Shown here one piece after another: positions 12,310-59,907 of a stretch of DNA of 64,000 nucleotides (its first letter is position 1; every line of letters starts with the position of its first letter). Location: positions 351,540,001 through 351,604,000 of the forward strand of contig OZ024742.1 in NCBI GenBank assembly GCA_964016885.1, given 5' to 3'. The notes beneath the pieces were generated by a model. That model was not told the origin of the DNA. It searched no databases and was given only the letters and a program-made list of their open reading frames with translations. The position numbers and the translations under genes were made by a program. Source of the stretch: Eledone cirrhosa (Eukaryota).

Positions 12310-15300
12310 TTACAGATATATACTCAGAGTCGGCCCATTCACTCGGGCCATTCTTGCTTCTCTCACCCATCTTTCAACAAAATGCTGGGAAGAGAGCACT
12401 TCCCTCTCTACTCTGATTTTCCTTTTCAAATGAAATTTGAAAAAGTCAATCAGAGCATCACCGAAGAGGTAAGTGCTCGTCTTCAGCCCTTTCAAACGTG
12501 TCCACCATACTATCTCTTTCGCCATGGCCACCAGACAGATAAAAACTGCCTGCCCTTCCCGGCTAAAGGAGGAGGGCGGGGCAATCCTCACGATAGACTC
12601 AGATGATAGCTGGATCCGTCCTAAACGCGACAGCAGGTGTTCGACATAAACCCACAAGTCAGCAATTTTCGGACACTGGACGAGTGCGTGCAGGACGGTT
12701 TCGTCGCCATGCGCGCATCTCGGACATGCCCGGCTGACGGCACCTCCATGCCTGTAGAGTTTATCCCGAACTGGCAAGGCTCCTCGGTAGCACTGCCAGG
12801 CCAGAGATTTCTGGAAGTTGTCCATAGGCCCTGGCCCGAAAGTTCTTCCGAAGAGATTGGCTAGTTGATTTTCGTCGACGCCTAGAGTTTCCCCAAGTAC
12901 GTCGTCGCTCTTCCCCTCCACTAATCCTCTATAGAACGCCGAGGTGGAGTTTCCACCGATCACATTGCCCGATTGGTCGAGGGCTGTGAGCGCCTGAAGA
13001 CATTCCAGTCTCCAGGCGCTCCCTCTCGGTCTTCGCTTGACCCAGGACTGCAGCTCCGTCAAGGAAACGAGCTGGGGAAAAACGCGTCTAGCAAACGGCG
13101 ACCACACCTGATCACCGTCGAGGAAGAGGTGGAGATGTCGTAGCCTGAGCGCGTGCCTGCGCATCATCAGCCACGGCATGCCCAGCCCTCCACGTAGCGG
13201 GTGTTGACAACAGATGGACCGCCTGACCATCGGAGCACGTCCCTTCCACAAAAAGCGAAAGAGCAAACGCTCCAGCGCAGTCAGGCGAGGCTTAGGACAA
13301 GGTACGACGGTTAGGCGGTAGCAGATGACAGACGCGATGTACGCGTTAGCCACCTCCGCTCGACCTTTCAGGGATAGCTTCCTCTCCGCCCATTTCTGGG
13401 TGAGAGAAGCCACCCTGCTCGTCACCTCGTCCCAGTTTTTGTCCGTCTGGAGGTCCGGACCGAACCAGACCCCTAGCAATTTAACCGGTCCGTCCGTCCA
13501 GCGCCCGACGACGCTGTTGGACGGCATGGACCTGCCTCTCCAGGTGCCGAGCTGCAGGCCCACTGACTTTTCCTGGTTGATCATTGCTCCTGTCACCGCT
13601 TCGTATTCTCTTAGTGTAGTGCCGATCGCCTCGATGTGTTTGGCGTTCGACACCACTACGGTGACATCGTCCGCATATGCTGACACGGATCTTCCGCATC
13701 CTAGTTCGCGCGGGACTCCCCTCAACGTCTCCAGTTTGTGCAGTAATGGCTCGAGCGTCAATACGTACAAGAGGGACGAGAGGGGACATCCTTGGCGGAC
13801 CGAGCGCATGATGTTGAACGGTTCCGACAGGTGACCGTTCACTCTCACCACAGAGCAGATGTCGCTGTGCATGGCAGCGATCCAGCCTCTGAAGACGGGC
13901 CCAAAGCCAGCCGCCCTCAGGACTGCCGCTAGGTAACGATGGTCGACCCTATCGAAAGCTTTCGACTGATCTAAATTGATCAAGGACCCACCCGTGCCAG
14001 GTTCCCTAGCTACCCTCTCTACGATGTATCGCATGAGGTGGAGGTTGTCGTGGATGGATCTGTCGGGAATGGCGCATGTCTGCGCCTCTCCCACCAGACC
14101 ACCAACGACAAGCGCCAACCTCTTTGCTAGCACCTTGGCCAAAATCTTAAACTCTGTGTTTAGCAGAGTTATGGGCCGGAAATTTTCTATGTTATCCCCC
14201 TTGTTCGGATCCTTTCTCAGCAGTGCCACCGCTCCTCGGCTCACAGAACTGGGAATTCTCCCGTTCTGTTGCCAGTTGCAGTAGACGTCCGCCAAGAGGC
14301 CTCCGAACAAGTCTGGCATCTGTACGTAAAGTTCATAGGGCAGACCATCCAAACCAGGCGATTTACCCCTTGTGCAGCCAGTCATTGCCTCCCTTACTTC
14401 AGCGGCTGTTATCGGCTTTTCGCAACACTTCGCCTCAGTGGCCGAGAGCCGCGGCAGTCCGTCGAGGTAGACACTAAAGTCCATCCCTCTACCCGGCCCA
14501 CCGCTGCCCCCGAACAGCTGAGCGAAGTGTCGCTGAAAAGCTTCACACATTTGCCCGGGATCGAGTAGCATGCGCCCGTCGTGGTCCACCAAAGAGCGGA
14601 TCGTGGCTTTGTTGCCACGACGCGCCTCCGCCACTCGGGCCCATTGCACGGCTTTCGTCCCCTCGTGTCTGAGAGCACGCACCCTTGCTCTGACAACGCA
14701 GCCTTCGTGCTTTGCATTGAAGAATTGGTCAAGGGCCAATTTCGCCGCAAGCACGTCGGTCGCAATGCCTTTGCTAAGCGCCTCGTCTAATTTTCTAACT
14801 AGTTCTCCCTCTGCTCTATTTTTCTCTATTGCTAAAGCCTTACTAAACCTAATCGATTCTATTCTAATCGCTCTTTTCAGAGCAAACCACCACTTGTTGT
14901 TGACGATGGCCCCCGTCAACGCCCGCTTAACTAGTTCGCTAATCCGGTCTCTGTAGGCCTTGCGCGCTGGTAAGGACGCGTTTAGCTTCCAGTAGCCGGG
15001 TCCTCGTCTATGAAGCCTATCTAAGTCAAGCACACAGATCACGAATTTGTGGTCCGTGTAGCTGACTATCTTGAATTGTGGACAGCCTATGCTAGACCTA
15101 TCTATTTCCCTACAAAATACTCTATCTAGATATGATCTGGATGACCCTATGCGGTTTGTCCAAGTCCACATTGGCACATTCGGGAAATCCAATCGGTACC
15201 TGTCAGACAGTTCAAAACGCCTGAGCAGGTTGGTGAGGCTCTTGCACCCTCCACCCCTATCCGCTAATCCCACACAGTCCCAGCGTGCATCTAAGATCCC

Positions 15301-15729
15301 GTTCCAGTCGCCCACTAACACTAAAGAGCGGGACGTTCCAAGAAAGGTCTCCAGACGCCGGAAGAAATCAGGCCGCCCTGCTCCTGTCGGGGCATAGACG
15401 GCCACTAGCCTGAAAGCTTGCCCGTCTCCGCTGGTCACGTCCAGCACCACCAGCTTACCCTCTGGGTCCAGGAAGATGGCCCGTATGGCGAGATCCAAAC
15501 CTCTCCGAAAAAGCACAGCAACTCCTCCACCGGATCCAGGACGGCTGGGAGATGCGTACACATCGAAGCCGCCGAAGATCGGTGCGAAGGCCCGTGCTTC
15601 GGAGATTCTGGTCTCGCTGATGGCCACTACATCTATGTTTAGTGACCTGAGGTCGTTGAGCAGGTGACCCTGCTTCCATGACGACCCCAAGCCACGCGCA
15701 TTTATGCTGCCTATTCTGAGTGAGGTCAT
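12310..15729 (-). CDS. Tx1-like ORF2: APE endonuclease, reverse transcriptase and C-terminal CCHC finger (1139 aa)
   Basis: GSINARG, ISETR, VAVYAP, VGDWN, YLDRVF and TDH (APE); FRPITLLN, LDQSKAFDRV, QGCPLS and YADD (RT); CPRC..ETVLHALVQC. Confidence 0.95.
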   Translation of the reverse strand: MTSLRIGSINARGLGSSWKQGHLLNDLRSLNIDVVAISETRISEARAFAPIFGGFDVYASPSRPGSGGGVAVLFRRGLDLAIRAIFLDPEGKLVVLDVTSGDGQAFRLVAVYAPTGAGRPDFFRRLETFLGTSRSLVLVGDWNGILDARWDCVGLADRGGGCKSLTNLLRRFELSDRYRLDFPNVPMWTWTNRIGSSRSYLDRVFCREIDRSSIGCPQFKIVSYTDHKFVICVLDLDRLHRRGPGYWKLNASLPARKAYRDRISELVKRALTGAIVNNKWWFALKRAIRIESIRFSKALAIEKNRAEGELVRKLDEALSKGIATDVLAAKLALDQFFNAKHEGCVVRARVRALRHEGTKAVQWARVAEARRGNKATIRSLVDHDGRMLLDPGQMCEAFQRHFAQLFGGSGGPGRGMDFSVYLDGLPRLSATEAKCCEKPITAAEVREAMTGCTRGKSPGLDGLPYELYVQMPDLFGGLLADVYCNWQQNGRIPSSVSRGAVALLRKDPNKGDNIENFRPITLLNTEFKILAKVLAKRLALVVGGLVGEAQTCAIPDRSIHDNLHLMRYIVERVAREPGTGGSLINLDQSKAFDRVDHRYLAAVLRAAGFGPVFRGWIAAMHSDICSVVRVNGHLSEPFNIMRSVRQGCPLSSLLYVLTLEPLLHKLETLRGVPRELGCGRSVSAYADDVTVVVSNAKHIEAIGTTLREYEAVTGAMINQEKSVGLQLGTWRGRSMPSNSVVGRWTDGPVKLLGVWFGPDLQTDKNWDEVTSRVASLTQKWAERKLSLKGRAEVANAYIASVICYRLTVVPCPKPRLTALERLLFRFLWKGRAPMVRRSICCQHPLRGGLGMPWLMMRRHALRLRHLHLFLDGDQVWSPFARRVFPQLVSLTELQSWVKRRPRGSAWRLECLQALTALDQSGNVIGGNSTSAFYRGLVEGKSDDVLGETLGVDENQLANLFGRTFGPGPMDNFQKSLAWQCYRGALPVRDKLYRHGGAVSRACPRCAHGDETVLHALVQCPKIADLWVYVEHLLSRLGRIQLSSESIVRIAPPSSFSREGQAVFICLVAMAKEIVWWTRLKGLKTSTYLFGDALIDFFKFHLKRKIRVEREVLSSQHFVERWVREARMARVNGPTLSIYL

Positions 15730-15764
15730 GTTTAAAATAGAGTGGAAAAGATGGGAAAGACCAC

Positions 15765-17858
15765 TTACCGTACTTTTGGTAGAGGAGGGATGGTTTTTAC
15801 ATCCCTTTTCACTTGATCGTCTGGTGAAGGGACCGTTGAATGGTCCCTTCGGCTGGTCGTCGGCTCTTCTAAGAGAATGTCTGAGTATACTCTTCGATTG
15901 ATGGTTCCTCCTAGGTCCCTGAAATCACCAACTGCGTTGGGGAATTTCGTTTTAATATTTGTGTATTGTTTCTGTGCTATTTTTAGCAGTCTTATGTTAG
16001 TTGGCGTTTTGATTGGTGCTGGTATTATGTAGTCCTGTTGTGAAATGTCTGTGTGTTCAATTATGTAAGTCATTAGTTTCTTGTTGTGTGTATTTATTGC
16101 CGTGCATTTGTTTTTCTGGGGGTGGGGTGTGGTTCTGCTATTTTCTTGTCGTTGTTGCTGGGTGTGTGTGTTTTGTTGTTGTGTTTGCGATGTTGGTGCT
16201 TGTGGTGGTGGTGTTGAAGGTGTTGTTGGCGGTGGGGTTGTCGCCGGTGGTGATGGTGGCGCTAGTGTGGGTGGTGATGGTGTTGGTGTTGTTGCTGCTG
16301 TGGGTCTCTTTGCAGTAGACTTTACCCTTTTCTCATTTCTTTCCTCCCTTTTCAAAGGCGACGATGCGCTGCTTCTGCGTTTGTGCCTTCTTGCGACCTT
16401 TTGCCATCCCTCTCCCACCTCACACTCCATGTCTGATTCTGTAAGGTCGGGGAGGGGTACCAGCTCCACTCTTTCACTTGTTGTTGTTGGTGATGTTTGC
16501 ACTGGAGTCTCTGTTGCAGCTGCATTTGGTATTGCTGTTGTTGTTGTTAATATTTCCACTGCTGCTGCTGTCTTTGATTTCCGTGGAGTGGGTATGGGTG
16601 CCACGGACCTATCGTTCCTGGTTGCCGCTTGTCCTGTTGCTGGTAGCCGTGGAGCCGGATTCGGAAGGAGGGGGGTTTTCTCCTTTCTCAGGGTCTTCTC
16701 GTTGCGGAAGGCCCTGAGGTGAGTCTTCGATCCACAGCGAAAGCATTTCGGGCGTTTGCCCTCAACACTTATGGGCAGTTGAGTGCCGTTATCGAAGTCT
16801 ATCACATCCGGGATAGCTTCGATGCACTCCTGGTTGGTTTGGATTAGCATCTCAATGGAGGAGCCGACCCAATCTTCTCTTACTTTTTTCTGTACTTGCA
16901 GTACAGTTGTTTTGTCCTCGATTCCGACGAGGACAGACGCGGCCAGCCAAGAAGGGGTCATTCCGGGGGGGACGTGGGTCAGTTTGACCCTCACAATTTT
17001 TTGCCCGCAGTAGGAGGGCACCAACACCATTTCCTCGCTCCTTAGGGTCACTACTGATTGGGCCTTTGCCTCCTGGGGTGTGGCAAAAAGTACGTCTACG
17101 GTGGCGTATTTTTTGCCTCGGGTGATGTGCGTTTTCCTCTGCCACACAGACCCCAAGGCTTTTTGTATTTGGGCCTCTGTGGCTCTTTCCACCCTACGGG
17201 ATTTTGTACTTACTGTACGGTACGTGACCGTACAGTGCTCTTGGGTTTCGAAAAAATTTTTCGCTGCCTTGCAGATTGCTCGGTGTCCGTTCTTTGTCAC
17301 CATCTTCTTCGCTTCCTCTAATTCCTCATTTGTTATGAGGATTGTCTCCAAGTTTTTCGCAATACCTGCAAATGAGATTGGTTTTTCTCTGCTGTTGTTG
17401 TTGTCGTCAGAGCTGCTGGTACTTTTGTTGCTGCAGGTACTACGACTACTGCCTCCGCCGCTGTTGCTGTGGTTGTTGTTGGTGTTGCTGCTGCTAATGC
17501 TGTTGTTGTTTATGATGCTGGTGATGCTGTTGCGGCTGCTACTGTTGTTTTCATTGTCACTGTTGCTGTTGTTATTACGGCTGCTACTGCTATTATTCCT
17601 GACGTCAGACGAATGAACTGGGTTTTCGTATTTCCCGCACACCTGTTTCGTCGCTGTCGTCGTCGTCGTGGAGAAACCTTGCAGGCTTTGCACGAGACTT
17701 TTCTTTTCTTTCGTCGCTTGCGAAAGAGAAGGGAGGGAGAGAGACACATTTAAAGAAGGGAGGGAGAGAGACAATCTTCTCTCTGCTGTAGTGATGATTG
17801 AGGAAGAAGAAGACGGAATGAGTGGGAGTGACGTATGAAATTTCTTTTTGGTAGCCAT
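15765..17858 (-). CDS. Tx1-like ORF1 nucleic-acid-binding protein with degenerate zinc knuckle
   Basis: Long open frame ending 35 nt upstream of ORF2; first ATG at 17858 (MATKKK). Contains CFRCGSKTHLRAFR, plus N/S-rich and P/T-rich tracts. Confidence 0.85.
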   Translation of the reverse strand: MATKKKFHTSLPLIPSSSSSIITTAERRLSLSLPSLNVSLSLPSLSQATKEKKSLVQSLQGFSTTTTTATKQVCGKYENPVHSSDVRNNSSSSRNNNSNSDNENNSSSRNSITSIINNNSISSSNTNNNHSNSGGGSSRSTCSNKSTSSSDDNNNSREKPISFAGIAKNLETILITNEELEEAKKMVTKNGHRAICKAAKNFFETQEHCTVTYRTVSTKSRRVERATEAQIQKALGSVWQRKTHITRGKKYATVDVLFATPQEAKAQSVVTLRSEEMVLVPSYCGQKIVRVKLTHVPPGMTPSWLAASVLVGIEDKTTVLQVQKKVREDWVGSSIEMLIQTNQECIEAIPDVIDFDNGTQLPISVEGKRPKCFRCGSKTHLRAFRNEKTLRKEKTPLLPNPAPRLPATGQAATRNDRSVAPIPTPRKSKTAAAVEILTTTTAIPNAAATETPVQTSPTTTSERVELVPLPDLTESDMECEVGEGWQKVARRHKRRSSASSPLKREERNEKRVKSTAKRPTAATTPTPSPPTLAPPSPPATTPPPTTPSTPPPQAPTSQTQQQNTHTQQQRQENSRTTPHPQKNKCTAINTHNKKLMTYIIEHTDISQQDYIIPAPIKTPTNIRLLKIAQKQYTNIKTKFPNAVGDFRDLGGTINRRVYSDILLEEPTTSRRDHSTVPSPDDQVKRDVKTIPPLPKVR

Positions 17859-19084
17859 GTTTTTTTGTTTAAAATGAAATTTTGGGTACAAAACCACAAT
17901 AACTGGTTATTTAACCCCGAAGGGCCAAATAACGGACAGAAAGACCCCTCTCACGAGGAGGAGGGTGTCTTTATCAACAATTTGGTTCAAGTTTTAAACA
18001 ATTTACAATTGTTTTAACGGTTAAAAATTACTATACCTTACAGAGCCGAGCCTCCGTCAACCATGGCATTCAATAATAATAATAATAATAATAATAAGAA
18101 GAAGAAGAAGAAGGGAAGAAGACGCACGTGGTGGTAGAAGGTCATGAAATCGCTCCGGTAAGATTTTGATTTTTAACATATTTAAATAAATTGTGAAATA
18201 ACAATTCTTAGTACAAATGATGCATAAATCACCGAATCAAGTCACATAAAAATTCGGATCTATAATATATTGTTATAACGCTCAAATATTCAATGTTGTA
18301 TTATATATTTTATATTAAAAAAAGAAAATGGTTATACATGGAAGAACACCCCCGCTGTCTACACCAAAAACTAGATACACCTCCTACCCCATCACCCCGC
18401 TGTGTACACTAAATATAAATAACAGCCAGATAACGGCAATTTCACCACCACCACCACCAATCCCAGCATCATAATAATAATTACTATTATTATTGTCTCA
18501 AGTTTTAACAAAATGTTTAATTCCAATATTAAGGGAATATGTAAACACATATATTAAACATACGCGACACAAACGCATAGATACTACAGATCAAACAAAA
18601 CTAGTCTATTCGACATAACTCAGTAACGACAACGCCACCGCCGCCACCACTTCATCCATCATTGCTATCACTATCCCATCACCGCCGCCACCACTCCTTC
18701 ATTGCTACCACCTCTATTTCCCGGTTAACTTAAGAAAGGGGAAGGTGGCGGTATCACTAGATAAGGGAGAGGCTAGCAAAATATATAAATAGATTGACTT
18801 AGTGACCCGGCCACCGGCCAAAGGTCAACAACTATGGCACTGTTGGCTCCCCCTTCCCCACCAACAATATAAAAAGCCCCAGCACCACCACCGACATAGC
18901 CAACAACAATAACAGGCAACTTCAGCAAAAAGTATATTATATTATTGTAATGCACTGGGTAATTGCTGGCCTTGTGCCTGGAGTGGATACAATTATTAAT
19001 AATTTCATTCTTAAGCCACGCAATGCTCACATTAAGGAACCCCTCATGATAATAACAATTAAAAAAAACAACAAAAAAGAAAAC

Positions 19085-39855: not shown

Positions 39856-39904
39856 GCTTCTACAGGTCTAGAACTGTTTCATTCGGGAGAAATCATCAGG
39901 AAGC
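39856..39904 (-). ncRNA. Type I hammerhead within a short fold-back element (39840-40025)
   Basis: GCTTC-CTGATGA-tttc tccc gaat-GAAACAG ttctagac CTGTA-GAAGC. Core-less inverted copy at 39912-39965. Confidence 0.8.
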
Positions 39905-51221: not shown

Positions 51222-52083
51222 TTGTTATACTTGGGGAGGGTCATATTTGTGTAATATTGCCAGAATTAATAACAGAACACACTCACTGTTTGTTGGTTTT
51301 CGCTTCTCGCTTCTGTCTTTTATATCGGTAATCTAACTTACTCCGTCCTCAATGTTGCCATTGACTGACCAACGGTCAAAAATAATACAGATACAATATA
51401 GACACAAACACATATATATAGTTTATCATAAATCTTTCGTTGCACATCTACAACATCGTCAGTGGTGCTATAGATTCCTCCCGTTGCATTGTATTTCTAC
51501 GCCATCTTTATTTAGTCTGTTTATATATTTATTTATTTATTTGTTTGTTTGTTTATTTTATTTTGTCTTCTTGCGCATGCATTTGCGTGTGTGTATAGTG
51601 TTTTGTTTGTTGTGTGTTCGTGATTGGGTGACTGTGTATTGTTTAATGTTTTCTATGTTTACTAGTGTGTGTTTATATGTGTTTGTTGTTATTGTGCTTG
51701 TGTATGTATTTTTTTATTTATCTATTTATTTATTTAAACCTAACATCTTGATTCTTCACCCTAAAATAGCATAGATTAAATATTTTCAAACTTAACCGTT
51801 TAACTTTCGGAAAATATCCTTCTACATTACATCCCTCTCTCTCTATATATATTATCTCAGTAGCTCTCATTGACCGCTTTCCCTGATAAATTGTAGTATC
51901 AAACATTTTAAAATCTCTATAACTGTTACATTAAGCAACGTTTTTCTCACTCACACATTCTCTATTGAATTGATTACGTTTTTGCATTTTCTCATTATTA
52001 GGGTATAAATGATAAACTTTCTCTTGGGTTAATCACTACCTTGATTAAATCTTAACATCTCAGGGTATGTCATGTATCATTCT

Positions 52084-52136
52084 ATTTTGTCTGATGAGGA
52101 GGTACTGTTGTACATCTGAAATATGTATAATAAAAT
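52084..52136 (+). ncRNA. Minimal type I hammerhead
   Basis: ATTTTGT-CTGATGA-ggaggtac tgtt gtacatct-GAAAT atgt ATA-ATAAAAT. Confidence 0.8.
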
Positions 52137-52279
52137 GTAATTGATAAAAAGAACATCTATGTTATTAATATTTGTATTTTAATATTAATATCTCTGGAAA
52201 ATTATTTTTACCATAGAGTGCTTCCAATCTACTGTAAAACTCATTCTTTGATATACTCATTGAATATTGTTTAACTCTG

Positions 52280-52340
<61 letters not shown>

Positions 52341-52460
52341 GCTTATAATTATGCCCCATTTTTGTGTGTAAGTCACTTTAACGGCCTGACCCCATGCAAA
52401 GGGCCGGACGCGAAATATTCTCTTACTATGAGGCTTTATACCCATATAGTATGGATATAT

Positions 52461-52538
52461 CTGTCTGAAGATCTAATACTTTCCATTGGAAATTCTCTGA
52501 ATTTCCAATCTTTTGGTTAGTGAAACCGTCCGTAACGG
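52461..52538 (+). ncRNA. Type I hammerhead, tandem copy 1
   Basis: CTGT-CTGAAGA-tctaa...ttagt-GAAAC cgtcc GTA-ACGG. Confidence 0.7.
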
Positions 52539-52924
52539 CAATAGAACAGGTGAATATTTAAATCGTTGTTACTTTATTTAAAGGATTGTTTGATTATTAC
52601 TTGTTTCGCTCACTTTCATAGTTCTGGTATCTGAAATAGTACCATCGAAACACAACTATTATAAACATCATGCATATTTATGTGGGTACATAGTACATGT
52701 TGCAATATCCATACCCTTTTATATTTATTCTCATTATATCTAGAGAACAAAACGTTGTATCGCGCTGCTATTTTTAGCAGCATGATCAACAAGTTTATAA
52801 TATCCCTTTTTACTTATGGCCTATTTTTGTGTGTGGGTTACTTTAACGGCCTGACCCCATGCAACGGGCAGGAAGCGATATATTGTCTTACTAAGAGGCT
52901 TTATACCCTTATAGTATGCAAATA

Positions 52925-53004
52925 GCTGTCTGAAGATCTAACTCTTTCCATCGGAAATTTTCTGAATTTCCGAACTTTTGATTAGTGAAACCGTCGGTAA
53001 CGGC
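52925..53004 (+). ncRNA. Type I hammerhead, tandem copy 2
   Basis: GCTGT-CTGAAGA-tctaa..tcggaaatt ttct gaatttccga..ttagt-GAAACC gtc GGTA-ACGGC. Confidence 0.8.
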
Positions 53005-53091
53005 AATAGAACAGGTGAATATTTAAATCGTTATTTAATTTAGTTAAAGGATTGTTTGCTGATTACTTGTTGCGCCACATTTATATGTGTG

Positions 53092-53146
<55 letters not shown>

Positions 53147-53417: not shown

Positions 53418-53491
<74 letters not shown>

Positions 53492-53499
<8 letters not shown>

Positions 53500-53830
53500 A
53501 GATCAAAAGATGGTTAAAGGAGTTCCATGTATTTTATTATGCGCATTTCAAAAACAAACATCATCATGCAATAATATTTGTGTTTTCATCACATAAAACA
53601 GGAGAACATGATATGAAGGCTAAAAAACACTTGTGGATAGTGCAGTTTTAAATCAACATATCATATTGATTTAAAACTGCACTATCCACAAGTGTTTTTT
53701 AGCCTTCATATCATGTTCTCCTGTTTTATCTGATGAAAACACAAATATTATTGCATGATGATGTTTGTTTTTGAAATGCGCATAATAAAATACATGGAAC
53801 TCCTTTAACCATCTTTTGATCTTATATTAT
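53492..53830. mobile_element. 339-bp palindromic element (165-bp arms, 9-nt loop)
   Basis: 53492-53656 is the reverse complement of 53666-53830, with one visible mismatch. Follows (TA)n. Confidence 0.92.
53723..53791 (+). ncRNA. Type I hammerhead
   Basis: GTTTTAT-CTGATGA-(~16-bp stem II)-GAAAT gcgc ATA-ATAAAAT; palindrome ATGCGCAT. Confidence 0.85.
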
Positions 53831-53916
53831 GTATACTCCAGTCCTACAAACTGTAGAGTGCTTCTTATCCGATATCTGCATTGCTTTATTGTACTACAAT
53901 AAAACTCACCTCCTAC

Positions 53917-54363: not shown

Positions 54364-54790
54364 GAATACATATATATTTATGTTATAAGGATTCGGGACC
54401 CCGACGGCTGAGCTCTTGCCGTTTCCAGTCTCTGGATGTAGCTGTTGAAAAGGCAAGTGCTCATTCGTTGGAGAGACGGACTTTTATATTAATACCATAC
54501 CCGATTACCCCGAGTATCGATTACTTTGGTGTGAAATGGTCTAATCAATTCCAAATTGATTTCAATCTGATTTGTATATATATATTTATATATATTAGGT
54601 ATAGGATTACCCAAGATGTAGTAATGGTTAATTACTACACTGGATATGGTTTACGTACGGTGAGAGGTTACTCTACGAGTTCTGGAAGTATTGCTGGAGA
54701 AACTTTGTTCCTGATCCTTCTGTATTCCGGAGTGTATATAAAGAATGAATAATAACAGGTAGACATCATAAAAAGGTAATTTATTCTGTG

Positions 54791-54902
54791 TGCTTACAAA
54801 TGTTTCCACGGTGGTACTGCAGCCTAGTTATGCTATGTGCAAACTTACAAGTATTTGCAGAACTCAAATATCCAATGCTGTGACCACTGTATCCTCAGAG
54901 CA
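54791..54902 (-). ncRNA. PLE hammerhead with 85-nt stem II domain
   Basis: TGCT-CTGAGGA-tacagtggt...accaccgtg-GAAAC attt GTA-AGCA. Confidence 0.75.
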
Positions 54903-55424
54903 GAATGGTAAAATGTACAATGTAAATACCCTTAAGTGGGGTCGTTGGGGAAGATAGAGTAGAAAAGGAAGAGAGAAAAGTAGGGGAGAGGGAGAGAGAG
55001 AGAAAGATATGCAGGGGTTGGAGAAGTGGGAGAGAGTGGTTTGTAGATATTTTAATCAAAATGTTATGGTAGGGGTTTTATTATACTGGTTACTTTTGGA
55101 GAGATGCGTTGATAGTTAAGGTCAGAATTATTTATTGCCCCAGAGGGCAGGTTCATAGATGTGGAGAGGGAGGTAGGCCAAAGGCGAGAGAGAGAGAGTG
55201 TAATGGATGTAGAGAGAGAGGTAGAGAGGGGACAGACGAAGTTTATGTGGTGAGTGAACTTTGGGTTTGTAGTAGTAATCTGTGAATTGCACTGAGTTAT
55301 CATTTATAGTGATAAGCAGTGTATTGTCTTGTAGTGTGGGGGAAGAGAAGGTGGTTAGCTAGAAAGCGATGTTATAGTTACGGGTTCGAATGTTAAGTTA
55401 TTTTATATTGAGAGAATTTAACTT

Positions 55425-56696
55425 TTAGTTTGTGGTTGGATTATAATGATCGTTCAATTCTATCGTTAAGTAGTTTGTTTTGGATTTTAATATGTAAAAG
55501 AGTTCAAGGTTACATAACCTGCAGTACTTCAATCCACTCCGATATGCACTTGCGCTGGATAGTATATCCCATTTTAAAGTGAAATTTTGGTTGCGTTCAC
55601 GGAGTTGCCAGGTCTTGTTGGCGAGCGTGGTCACAAAACGGTGATCAGGATGTTTGATTGAGAATCGATGACGGTACCAGCGAGATTTAAACGAGGTGGT
55701 GGTAGATCCGATATAATACCATTTCTGGTCGTTCGATTCAACCGTGCATTGGTAAACAATGTTGGACTTTAGGCATTCATTCTTCAATGGACATCTTTTA
55801 GGTAGATGGCAGTTACATTCTTTGTTGTGGGTAGCGGGTATACCATGGATAGGTTGTGATAGCGGTACAGGTGGATTGTGTAATACCCGTCTCCCATTTA
55901 GTGGTTGGGAGGCAGATATTACGTTCTGCCCATCTGTTACTAAAATGTTTTGTTTTGTAGAGTTGTCTAATTGCCTTAAGTTAAGTTTTTGTTATGTATG
56001 CTTAAAGGTTTGGTGCCGTGGAGTATGATAGTCTAATAGTTTTAGAGTTCAGAATTTTGCTGTATTTATGGGAACTAGGGGATGTTTGTTGATTAACTTA
56101 AAGAATGAAAGCGATAGTTTTGTACTAATCGAGGCATTAAAAATAGGATTGTACCAGATATACTTTCTACAACGTGATTTATTTGGTGGTGATTTTCTAT
56201 TATTAGTATGTCTGGTAGCACTGTTTGTGTGCGCTTGTATCTTAGTCCCCCGGTTACGTATTCCTTGATTTCGTGTAGAGCTATGTGTGTTATGGAAATT
56301 CCTATCAATGTATTCTATTGTATCCCGGTGGTCGGCATTCCTTAATGCATTATTGTAGTATTCAGCGTGTTAACAAAAAAATATCAGAGTTAGACGATAG
56401 GTGAGAGATTCTAAGAGAAATACTCCGGGGAACTGATTTGATCATGGAGAGTGGGTGGTTGAGTTAAAGTTGATATACGTAAGGTTCTCATTCATCTTGT
56501 GGAAGGGTCGTATCTCTCCGGTATTTAAATTAAGAGTTACGTCCAGAAAGTTTACTACTTTAAGATTGTATTCATATGTTATTTTTAGACCCAGTTCGCT
56601 AAAAGATTTTCTAATATTTTTCCGTAGCCTTTCAAGATTTTGGTTATTCAAGTTATTAACTAACAAGAGGCCGTCATCTCTGTATATCCCCCCCCC
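55425..56696 (-). pseudogene. Fragmented PLE RT C-terminus and GIY-YIG endonuclease
   Basis: GIYRDDGL, VVNFLDVTLNL, CNC..CPLKNECLKSNIVYQ, YYIGST..FKSRWYRH and CRLCNLE; frameshifts. Confidence 0.9.
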
Positions 56697-57319
56697 CTGT
56701 AGATTATGTAACCGTGAACTCGTTTACATATTAAAATCCAAAAACAAACTACTTAACGATAGAATTGAACGATCATTATACTGCAACCACAAACTAAAAG
56801 CTAAATTCTCTCACTATAAAATAACTTAACATTCGAACCCGTAACTATAACATCGCTTTCTAACTACCCACCTTCTCTTCCCCCACACTACAAGACAATA
56901 CACTGCTTATCACTATAAATGGTAACTCAAGGCAATTCACAGATTACTACTACAAACCCAAAGTTAACTCACCATATAAACTTCGTCTGTCCCCTCACTA
57001 CCTCTCTCTCTACATCCATTACACTCTCTCTGCCTCGCCTCTGGCCTATCTCCCTCTTCACATCTATGAACCTGCCCTCTGGGGCAATAAATAATTCCGA
57101 CCTTAACTATCAACGCATCTCTCCAAAAGTAACCAGTATAATAAAACCCCTACCATATCATTTTGATTAAGATATCTACAAACCACTCTCTCCCACTTCT
57201 CCAACCCCTGCATATCTTTCTCTCTCTCTCCCTCTCCCCTACTTTTCTCTCTTCCTTTTCTACTCTATCTTCCCCAACGACCCCACTTAAGGGTATTTAC
57301 ATTGTACATTTTACCATTC

Positions 57320-57431
57320 TGCTCTGAGGATACAGTGGTCACAGCATTGGATATTTGAGTTCTGCAAATACTTGTAAGTTTGCACATAGCATAACTAGGA
57401 TGTAGTACCACAGTGGAAACATTTTTAAGCA
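57320..57431 (+). ncRNA. Inverted-pLTR copy of the PLE hammerhead
   Basis: Same motif, with GTA changed to TTA at the cleavage triplet. Confidence 0.65.
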
Positions 57432-58463
57432 CACGGAATAAATTACCTTTTTATGATGTCTACCTGTTAGTATTCATTCTTTATATACACTCCGGAATAC
57501 AGAATGATCAGGAATTATTATTCATTCTTTATATATATATATATGTATTAATCTATATGTGCCTGTATGCGTCTGACTGTGCGTACTTGTGTTGTTTTGT
57601 CTGATATATACATATATGTATCTAATTACATGTGCTTAATGTACTGAGATTGGTTCAAAAGTTGATCACATGTGAACTATATACAGATCTGTTGCCGTGT
57701 TATATAAAGATTATGTGGCAGTTCTTTTTAAATATAGCCGCAGAAAATAAAAATCAAACTATTTTATATAACATGTCGATAATTCCAGAATAATTAACGT
57801 GTAGACGATACAACAAAATGTAGATGGTAAAACGACATTTAACACATTAATATTGATGATTAAATAAACAGTTTATCGAAGGAATGCTTGAATTCAGTCC
57901 AATGCCTTTATAATATGGTACCAGCAAGATGCACTATATATGACAATCGGATAACATTCCTTTTAGTGATTAGTCTCATACAGCTAAATTAATGTTAAAT
58001 CCCGTCAGATTTCATTATTGTTTTAGTCTTGGGTTGATAAAATAAATATTTACAGTAAAGTGAGGTCAACTGAATCGATTGGAATATTTTGTAAACAGTA
58101 GTTTATAGTCTCGTGACAAAGAAATAAATCGATATTATGAATCTTGCAACTATTTTTTCCTCTAAGTACATTAATTAAAGAAAATCAGAATAATATATTA
58201 AACGATATAAACTGCAACACACACACACAGGCAATTATATATATTTATATATATATATAAATATTTATATATATACATACTCACACACACACACACACAC
58301 GCATATATGTATATATGAAAATACGAACTATTATTAAGTTTACGCATATATGAAATGGAAGGATATTCTACGTTTCGAACGGAAGTCCTTCGTGAGGTAA
58401 ATTCGGTTAGAGAGAGAACTAGTAAGCAGATGAACATTACAAATAGATATATATATATATAAA

Positions 58464-59868: not shown

Positions 59869-59907
59869 TGAACAAGTACTTTCGTGCTTTGGCAATCTTC
59901 AGGTTCA
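59869..59907 (-). ncRNA. 39-nt minimal hammerhead
   Basis: TGAAC-CTGAAGA-tTGC caaa GCAc-GAAAG ta CTT-GTTCA; palindrome AGTACT. Confidence 0.75.

Follow-up and report, generated by a model that had tools for sequence, protein, structure and literature searches.

Two hammerhead ribozymes in direct repeat raise the question of whether the DNA that carries them is a source of small circular RNA or a product of the process that makes it. We considered this question for a locus in a 64,000-nt stretch of the Eledone cirrhosa genome (64 kb, the window in what follows). An earlier note had predicted that tandem hammerheads at this locus yield a 465-nt monomer or circular RNA by the route of the non-LTR retrozymes, and that the two motifs could dimerize through stem III.

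The hammerhead pair lies in a single-armed insertion

A descriptor scan places a type I hammerhead pair on the plus strand: C3 is at 52465 and H17 at 52534 in the first motif, and at 52930 and 52999, respectively, in the second. The predicted cut sites, after 52534 and after 52999, are 465 nt apart on the same strand, and the coordinates given in the earlier note were exact. The two motifs have in common CUGAAGA, GAAA, a 50-nt stem II with a basal U.U, and GUA at the cut site, and the two lie within directly repeated sequence of about 268 nt (52343-52570 versus 52808-53035, 89% in alignment, spacing 465). The GC content of the region is about 30%, and (TA)n adjoins the locus on both sides. The features of the locus, in window positions, are:

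52280-52337, no strand: (TA)n microsatellite at the 5' junction, the presumed target
52338-53086, plus strand: single-armed insertion of the 467-nt retrozyme family, made up of one incomplete unit, one complete unit and a tail of 87 nt
52338-52534, plus strand: upstream unit, 5'-truncated (starts near unit position 270), with AT-rich microhomology at its junction to (TA)n
52460-52539, plus strand: hammerhead motif 1, type I, predicted cut after 52534; core intact, stems I and III each with a broken pair
52535-52999, plus strand: full 465-nt unit, the predicted monomer or circle; fold better than shuffles (z -3.25)
52714-52724, plus strand: internal copy of the second fixed 3' end, CCCTTTTATA, about 191 nt past the cut site; not an end here
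52925-53004, plus strand: hammerhead motif 2, type I, predicted cut after 52999; core and stems I-III intact, stem III palindromic
53000-53086, plus strand: 3' tail reaching 87 nt beyond the cut site, where the first fixed end lies; putative start of reverse transcription
53097-53143, no strand: (TA)n microsatellite at the 3' junction, the presumed target

The insertion corresponds to unit positions 263-467, 1-467 and 1-86 of the family, at 90-92% to the family majority. The catalytic cores of both motifs are intact, and motif 2 keeps stems I-III, its stem III being the palindrome ACCG-U-CGGU with a central U. In motif 1, the change 52531 G>C disrupts this palindrome with the loss of one stem III pair, and 52460 G>T cuts stem I to 4 bp with the loss of one pair there; the earlier note had mentioned neither.

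Such motifs could in principle have arisen by chance within a local tandem duplication or satellite. An Rfam scan of the whole window gave 0 matches at the gathering score, so that the hammerhead call rests on the descriptor and on conservation within the family rather than on a covariance model, and the hammerhead fold is not the minimum-energy fold. However, the same descriptor finds 7 hammerhead motifs in the 64-kb window, where 50 shuffles yield 0.06 on average. Of 151 family instances, 121 retain an intact core and 83 retain the core together with every stem; and copies of the family are scattered through the genome, have fixed ends and can lie in opposed arms. An origin by chance is, in our judgment, scarcely credible.

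Several other hammerheads lie nearby. An unrelated minimal type I motif at 52083-52137 (plus strand) has an 8-bp stem I, a self-complementary stem III and a predicted cut after 52129, and its repeat family is present in several other loci, some with inverted arms. A palindrome at 53487-53835, with 173-bp arms of 98% complementarity, has a hammerhead in each arm; the plus-strand hammerhead is intact (C3 53730, cut after 53784) and C3 is altered in the other arm. This palindrome is itself a repeat with close copies elsewhere in the genome, e.g. L205 and L010. Further motifs at 39861-39899 and 59874-59902, both on the minus strand, each come from a different repeat family. The window also holds, at 12310-17906 (minus strand), two long ORFs of 1204 aa and 713 aa, which we take to resemble a non-LTR retrotransposon with endonuclease and RT motifs.

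A dispersed family of 467-nt non-coding units

A search of the window's own genome (3.0 Gb) gave 2154 first-look candidates, of which 40 were scored, and 58 matches, while an exact 27-mer across the cut site had 133 matches in the genome versus 0 for a control. The unit length is 467 nt, from the majority of 30 distinct full units. The longest open frame of the family majority is 51 codons, and an RT/GIY-YIG ORF is absent from the unit. The family splits into two subfamilies that differ at 26 sites, with a median divergence of 3.4-3.5%. A search of a limited body of literature found no report of this family. BLAST showed no similarity between the unit and a 468-bp repeat family of the same genome (at C3:91.22 Mb).

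In 145 of 151 instances a U.U stands at the base of stem II and the usual G10.1-C11.1 pair is absent. Structure-compatible polymorphisms number only 3 in 80 nt versus 42 in 387 (P=0.06), and no compensatory base-pair changes were found in the family hammerhead. On the features examined, the family qualifies as a metazoan non-LTR retrozyme, with the expression of circles hypothetical. In two unlinked copies (L033:1710-1893 and L080:1805-1980), the same 184-nt repeat is inserted at unit position ~253-269; it is an abundant repeat, with four copies in the window.

Arms, the contiguous stretches of family sequence in an insertion, were mapped in 244 loci: the 30 best matches (a length-biased set), 70 of the 133 core matches, and three end-pattern sets, which comprise every place matching each of three patterns (44, 42 and 58). 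From 254 candidate arms we removed 26 that had internal false ends or were too short, and retained 228. Arms hold up to about three units.

The insertion footprint resembles that of Penelope-like elements

The family's 3' ends are of two fixed kinds, lying 87 or 191 nt beyond the cut site, each at a TTTTATA-like motif. Of 187 arms in the first 144 loci, 157 end at +87 or +191, in a sample partly ascertained on the +87 end. (TA)n follows directly after 223 of the 228 retained arm ends, while the 5' ends of family copies are truncated and scattered. In 50 insertions two opposed arms are joined at their 5' ends, and 49 of these 50 pair +87 with +191.

A Penelope-like protein has been described that nicks and extends both strands of AT-rich DNA and begins reverse transcription at two internal RNA sites, which define a 'tail' (PMC11167929). 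PMC8557442 lists as Penelope traits a preference for microsatellites, tandems that are partial, a tail at one end, and a copy both inverted and 5'-truncated. The paired two-end, (TA)n footprint is the Penelope-like 'tail' signature. The two fixed ends, the opposed arms and the (TA)n target together argue that a Penelope-like enzyme likely mobilized the retrozyme.

An autonomous Penelope-like family with the same two-end layout is found in the same genome. A two-armed remnant at 54570-57530, 1.5 kb downstream of the locus, has inverted arms at 54708-55488 and 56734-57514, a GIY-YIG-like ORF fragment at 55428-55991 (minus strand), a hammerhead whose stem II is 85 nt long, and 3' ends of two kinds, both at (TA)n. 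Its family is abundant, and includes copies with an open ORF of ~785 aa between hammerheads 3.2 kb apart. In 50 sequences of this family, 25 end near +60, 18 end near +200 and 7 continue into the body, and the ends are all at (TA)n. We regard the family as Penelope-like on three grounds: the match of the window's ORF fragment to GIY-YIG, weak and below the cut-off (E 7e-4); motifs in the ~785-aa ORF that, read by eye, we take to be RT-like; and the Atlas neighbours of the ORF, which carry HTH_animal, GIY-YIG and RVT_1. Pfam and PDB sequence searches did not recognize the RT of this ORF.

Is the repeat then only what is left of a pseudo-LTR, the locus having once held an autonomous Penelope-like element and lost its coding body? 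Penelope pseudo-LTRs are reported to carry hammerheads (PMC4209133), and the autonomous family has the same two-end footprint. In the arm maps of the first 144 loci, however, unit position 191 runs on into 192-467 and then wraps to 1, and the unit has no open frame longer than 51 codons. Nor did BLAST find a match between the 467-nt unit and 39 Penelope-like loci, which represent one autonomous family; a marginal similarity to the 5' region of that family was reached by 55 of 1000 shuffles. We consider a pseudo-LTR remnant very unlikely. By the same sequence comparison, the autonomous family is not demonstrably the partner of the retrozyme.

The copy at the locus is old and its upstream hammerhead is damaged

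If the locus were an active source, its transcript would be cut at both sites, by each motif alone or by a stem III dimer, to yield the 465-nt monomer or circle. The intact cores of motifs 1 and 2 favor this, as does the rarity of a layout capable of acting as a source: among 214 unbiased arms, just 8 have the length for two full hammerheads. Both hammerheads are intact in 3 of 12 such long arms overall, a set to which the window's own arm does not belong. Li et al. call copies 'active' when two consecutive units carry complete hammerheads; the locus has two cores, one of them (motif 1) with two broken pairs.

Motif 1 is predicted to need 9.3 kcal/mol to reach its active fold, compared with 4.3 for motif 2 and 3.8 for the family majority; inside the whole-locus transcript the figure for motif 1 rises to 12.8 kcal/mol. 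These costs are nearest-neighbour energies only, with tertiary contacts and proteins outside the model. Stem III dimers have been described for metazoan hammerheads (PMC4209133), and at the locus such a dimer, as the earlier note suggested, is geometrically possible; but it would contain C.C and U.U mismatches, and in the whole-locus transcript the dimer fold costs 18.1 kcal/mol compared with 18.4 for two monomeric folds, so that no rescue of motif 1 is predicted. An axolotl motif with a basal stem II U.U is reported to cleave weakly alone and better as a dimer (PMC7229834), and a Penelope hammerhead was protein-assisted in vitro (PMC11167929), an effect that lies outside folding energies; against this, 8 of 9 predicted Xenopus dimers were without cleavage as reported in 10.64898/2026.07.22.740005.

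The copy is also old, and among the more diverged. It differs from its subfamily at 56 of 741 positions (7.6%, against a median of 3.4%), stem-breaking changes included, and its two laps differ from each other at 37 positions and have one shared derived allele, which is common in the family. No promoter was identified; in particular, a U6-like one, defined as an octamer-like site with TATA 38-52 nt downstream, was not found on either strand of the family unit, and the unit contains eight T runs of 4 or more. At G000:C19:31.78-31.84 Mb, about 30 U6 snRNA genes form a tandem array with a 1.8-kb period and with octamer-like and TATA motifs upstream.

Given the pairs lost from stems I and III of motif 1 and the lack of predicted rescue by a dimer, production of a monomer or circle from this locus is doubtful, and we think it improbable that the locus is an active source. 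The copy likely cuts at the second site at most. The prediction of a 465-nt monomer or circle is probably right as an idea about the family and doubtful for this copy, which is better interpreted as something that retrozyme retrotransposition produced than as a locus now supplying circles.

In the family majority, the catalytic CUGA (unit positions 398-401) is predicted to pair with the 3' strand of stem III (462-465). This pairing extends stem I into an inactive rod in both subfamilies, and is favoured by 3.8 kcal/mol in the majority. Such a rod might protect a circle against re-cleavage.

Circular or linear RNA as template

The form of the RNA that was copied can be approached through the arms that reach the cut-site junction. 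In three sets, 35 of 43, 46 of 46 and 25 of 25 of these arms cross it, and a linear monomer copied once therefore cannot be the usual template. The junction spacing is exact (20) in 183 of 184 cases, in a sample partly ascertained on the exact junction pattern, and 0 of 96 arms change subfamily across the junction; both observations speak against template jumps from one random monomer's end to the next. Near-private non-CpG variants are common to the laps of one arm in 8 of 202 cases and to the two arms of one insertion in 8 of 154, compared with 0.36% sharing in same-subfamily control pairs, a control that the rarity filter biases low.

Arm lengths were also considered. Termination per 1000 nt is ~2.4-4.4 up to 400 nt and 6-18 beyond. 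None of 214 arms with canonical ends is longer than two units, and one arm with a non-canonical end spans three junctions. An excess of stops at about one lap (9 of 38 arms at 467-484 nt) was noticed post hoc and may reflect TA microhomology. The junction, variant-sharing and termination data are compatible with a circular RNA on which strand displacement is limited once a lap has been completed. For the family a circle is the favoured template, not a proven one; exact junctions and shared variants would also be expected if a young array were transcribed into a multimer that stayed uncleaved.

The latter possibility can be stated more generally, with Penelope-like enzymes using linear, uncleaved multi-unit transcripts, the hammerhead being a motif inherited from pseudo-LTRs, and no circles being formed. 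In vitro, Penelope insertion is reported to be independent of hammerhead cleavage, with unprocessed RNA as the main substrate (PMC11167929), and the inactive fold predicted for the core CUGA of the family majority, at 3.8 kcal/mol, points the same way. So does the failure to replicate a pile-up of 5' ends at the cut site, which we considered as evidence of cleavage in vivo and rejected: 8 of 43 in one set (expected 1.5), with 0 of 46 and 0 of 25 in two independent sets (pooled, 8 of 122 and 0 of 45). On the other hand, no long array of homogeneous units that could act as source came to light: in 244 loci, arms reach about three units at most. A master dimer would be expected to leave recurring lap-specific differences, yet none recurs in more than 3 of 43 arms. 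Furthermore, fixed 3' ends combined with 5' truncation would presumably shorten copies in each generation, yet two subfamilies differing at 26 sites arose. A linear template of this kind is an unlikely alternative, albeit one to be taken seriously.

The circular reading can be made more specific, in that a Penelope-type enzyme could prime a DNA break at each of its two ends, using two different fixed sites within a single circular 467-nt RNA. The pairing of the two sites in 49 of 50 insertions, the shared near-private variants, the exact junctions and the stop at about one lap lead to this suggestion, on which we are evenly divided. If true, it would amount to sequence evidence for circle-templated retrotransposition, a step that the retrozyme papers cited here propose and do not show.

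On the hammerhead strand, A>G changes (168 of 17515) exceed T>C changes (155 of 23855; context-matched z 2.96, per-site P 0.02), with subfamily polymorphisms as the top sites. As a trace of A-to-I editing this excess is weak, being without depletion after a 5' G and drawn from copies that are non-independent.

A model for the origin of the locus

We suggest that the locus is an old 1.6-unit copy of a non-LTR retrozyme, placed into (TA)n by what was likely a Penelope-like RT/endonuclease, probably from circular monomer RNA, and that it cuts at the second site at most. We consider this account likely as a whole. Multi-unit source copies would be transcribed and their hammerheads would self-cleave to monomers, which may then be joined by a host ligase, of the RtcB type by analogy with PMC7229834. 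A Penelope-like protein would bind the RNA and nick AT-rich (TA)n DNA on both strands. The cDNA would begin at an internal RNA position, +87 or +191 from the cut site, run back through the junction, and usually halt at about one lap. At the locus, one cDNA of ~750 nt (1.6 laps) would have started from +87 and given a single arm; because it ran for about 1.6 laps, the copy holds two hammerheads. Subsequent mutation would then have damaged the upstream hammerhead.

This model has implications for how such loci are interpreted. A long cDNA can produce a tandem hammerhead pair, which is therefore no sure sign of an active circle source, and the locus itself is an ordinary aged copy. As the route by which animal retrozymes enter new genomic sites, Penelope-like enzymes and circles have been proposed, in the work cited here, from co-occurrence and phylogeny. 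In the present family two starts (+87 and +191) and a (TA)n target are defined, and its genome also contains Penelope ORFs that look intact, so that the insertion step of a retrozyme is testable in a published in vitro system.

Comparison with known systems

The family shares with the metazoan non-LTR retrozymes described in PMC7229834 its tandem non-coding units with one type I hammerhead each (here one per 467 nt), low GC, lack of LTRs and multicopy state. To this extent the retrozyme route proposed in the earlier note is upheld, with the copy structure favoring, for the family, an RNA that is monomeric and probably circular. Axolotl HHR_Amex2, whose monomer is weakly active in that report, likewise has a U.U at the base of stem II. 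In contrast, the 467-nt unit is larger than the expressed RNAs of 170-400 nt given there, stem II is 50 nt here, and the present copies, known from DNA alone, mostly contain fewer than two units and are 5'-truncated and two-armed with fixed ends.

A link between Penelope and retrozymes is proposed in the Discussion of PMC7229834, and Li, Clavereau and Pollet (2026; 10.64898/2026.07.22.740005) argue by phylogeny that non-LTR retrozymes represent non-autonomous derivatives of Penelope. Our analysis agrees with theirs on a proposed Penelope-like partnership and on monomer and dimer copies dispersed genome-wide. The basis differs: theirs, as set out in that report, is co-occurrence and pseudo-LTR phylogeny, and ours is a paired-end footprint, without clear sequence homology to a partner in the one autonomous family compared.

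The likeness to Penelope-like elements, as characterized for PAc (PMC11167929) and in PMC8557442, includes two internal starts that give a 'tail', extension of both strands, insertion into AT-rich or microsatellite DNA, partial tandems, a 5'-truncated copy in inverted orientation, and a hammerhead upstream of the start sites. Unlike those elements, the present unit has no RT/GIY-YIG ORF, and its tail is 104 nt rather than the usual 30-40 nt. The non-autonomous Chlamys elements differ in that, according to PMC8557442, they generally share 3' sequence with autonomous families and most are without hammerheads. Such elements, e.g. MRC1, resemble the present family in being non-coding, with pseudo-LTRs, and in forming head-to-tail multi-copy insertions.
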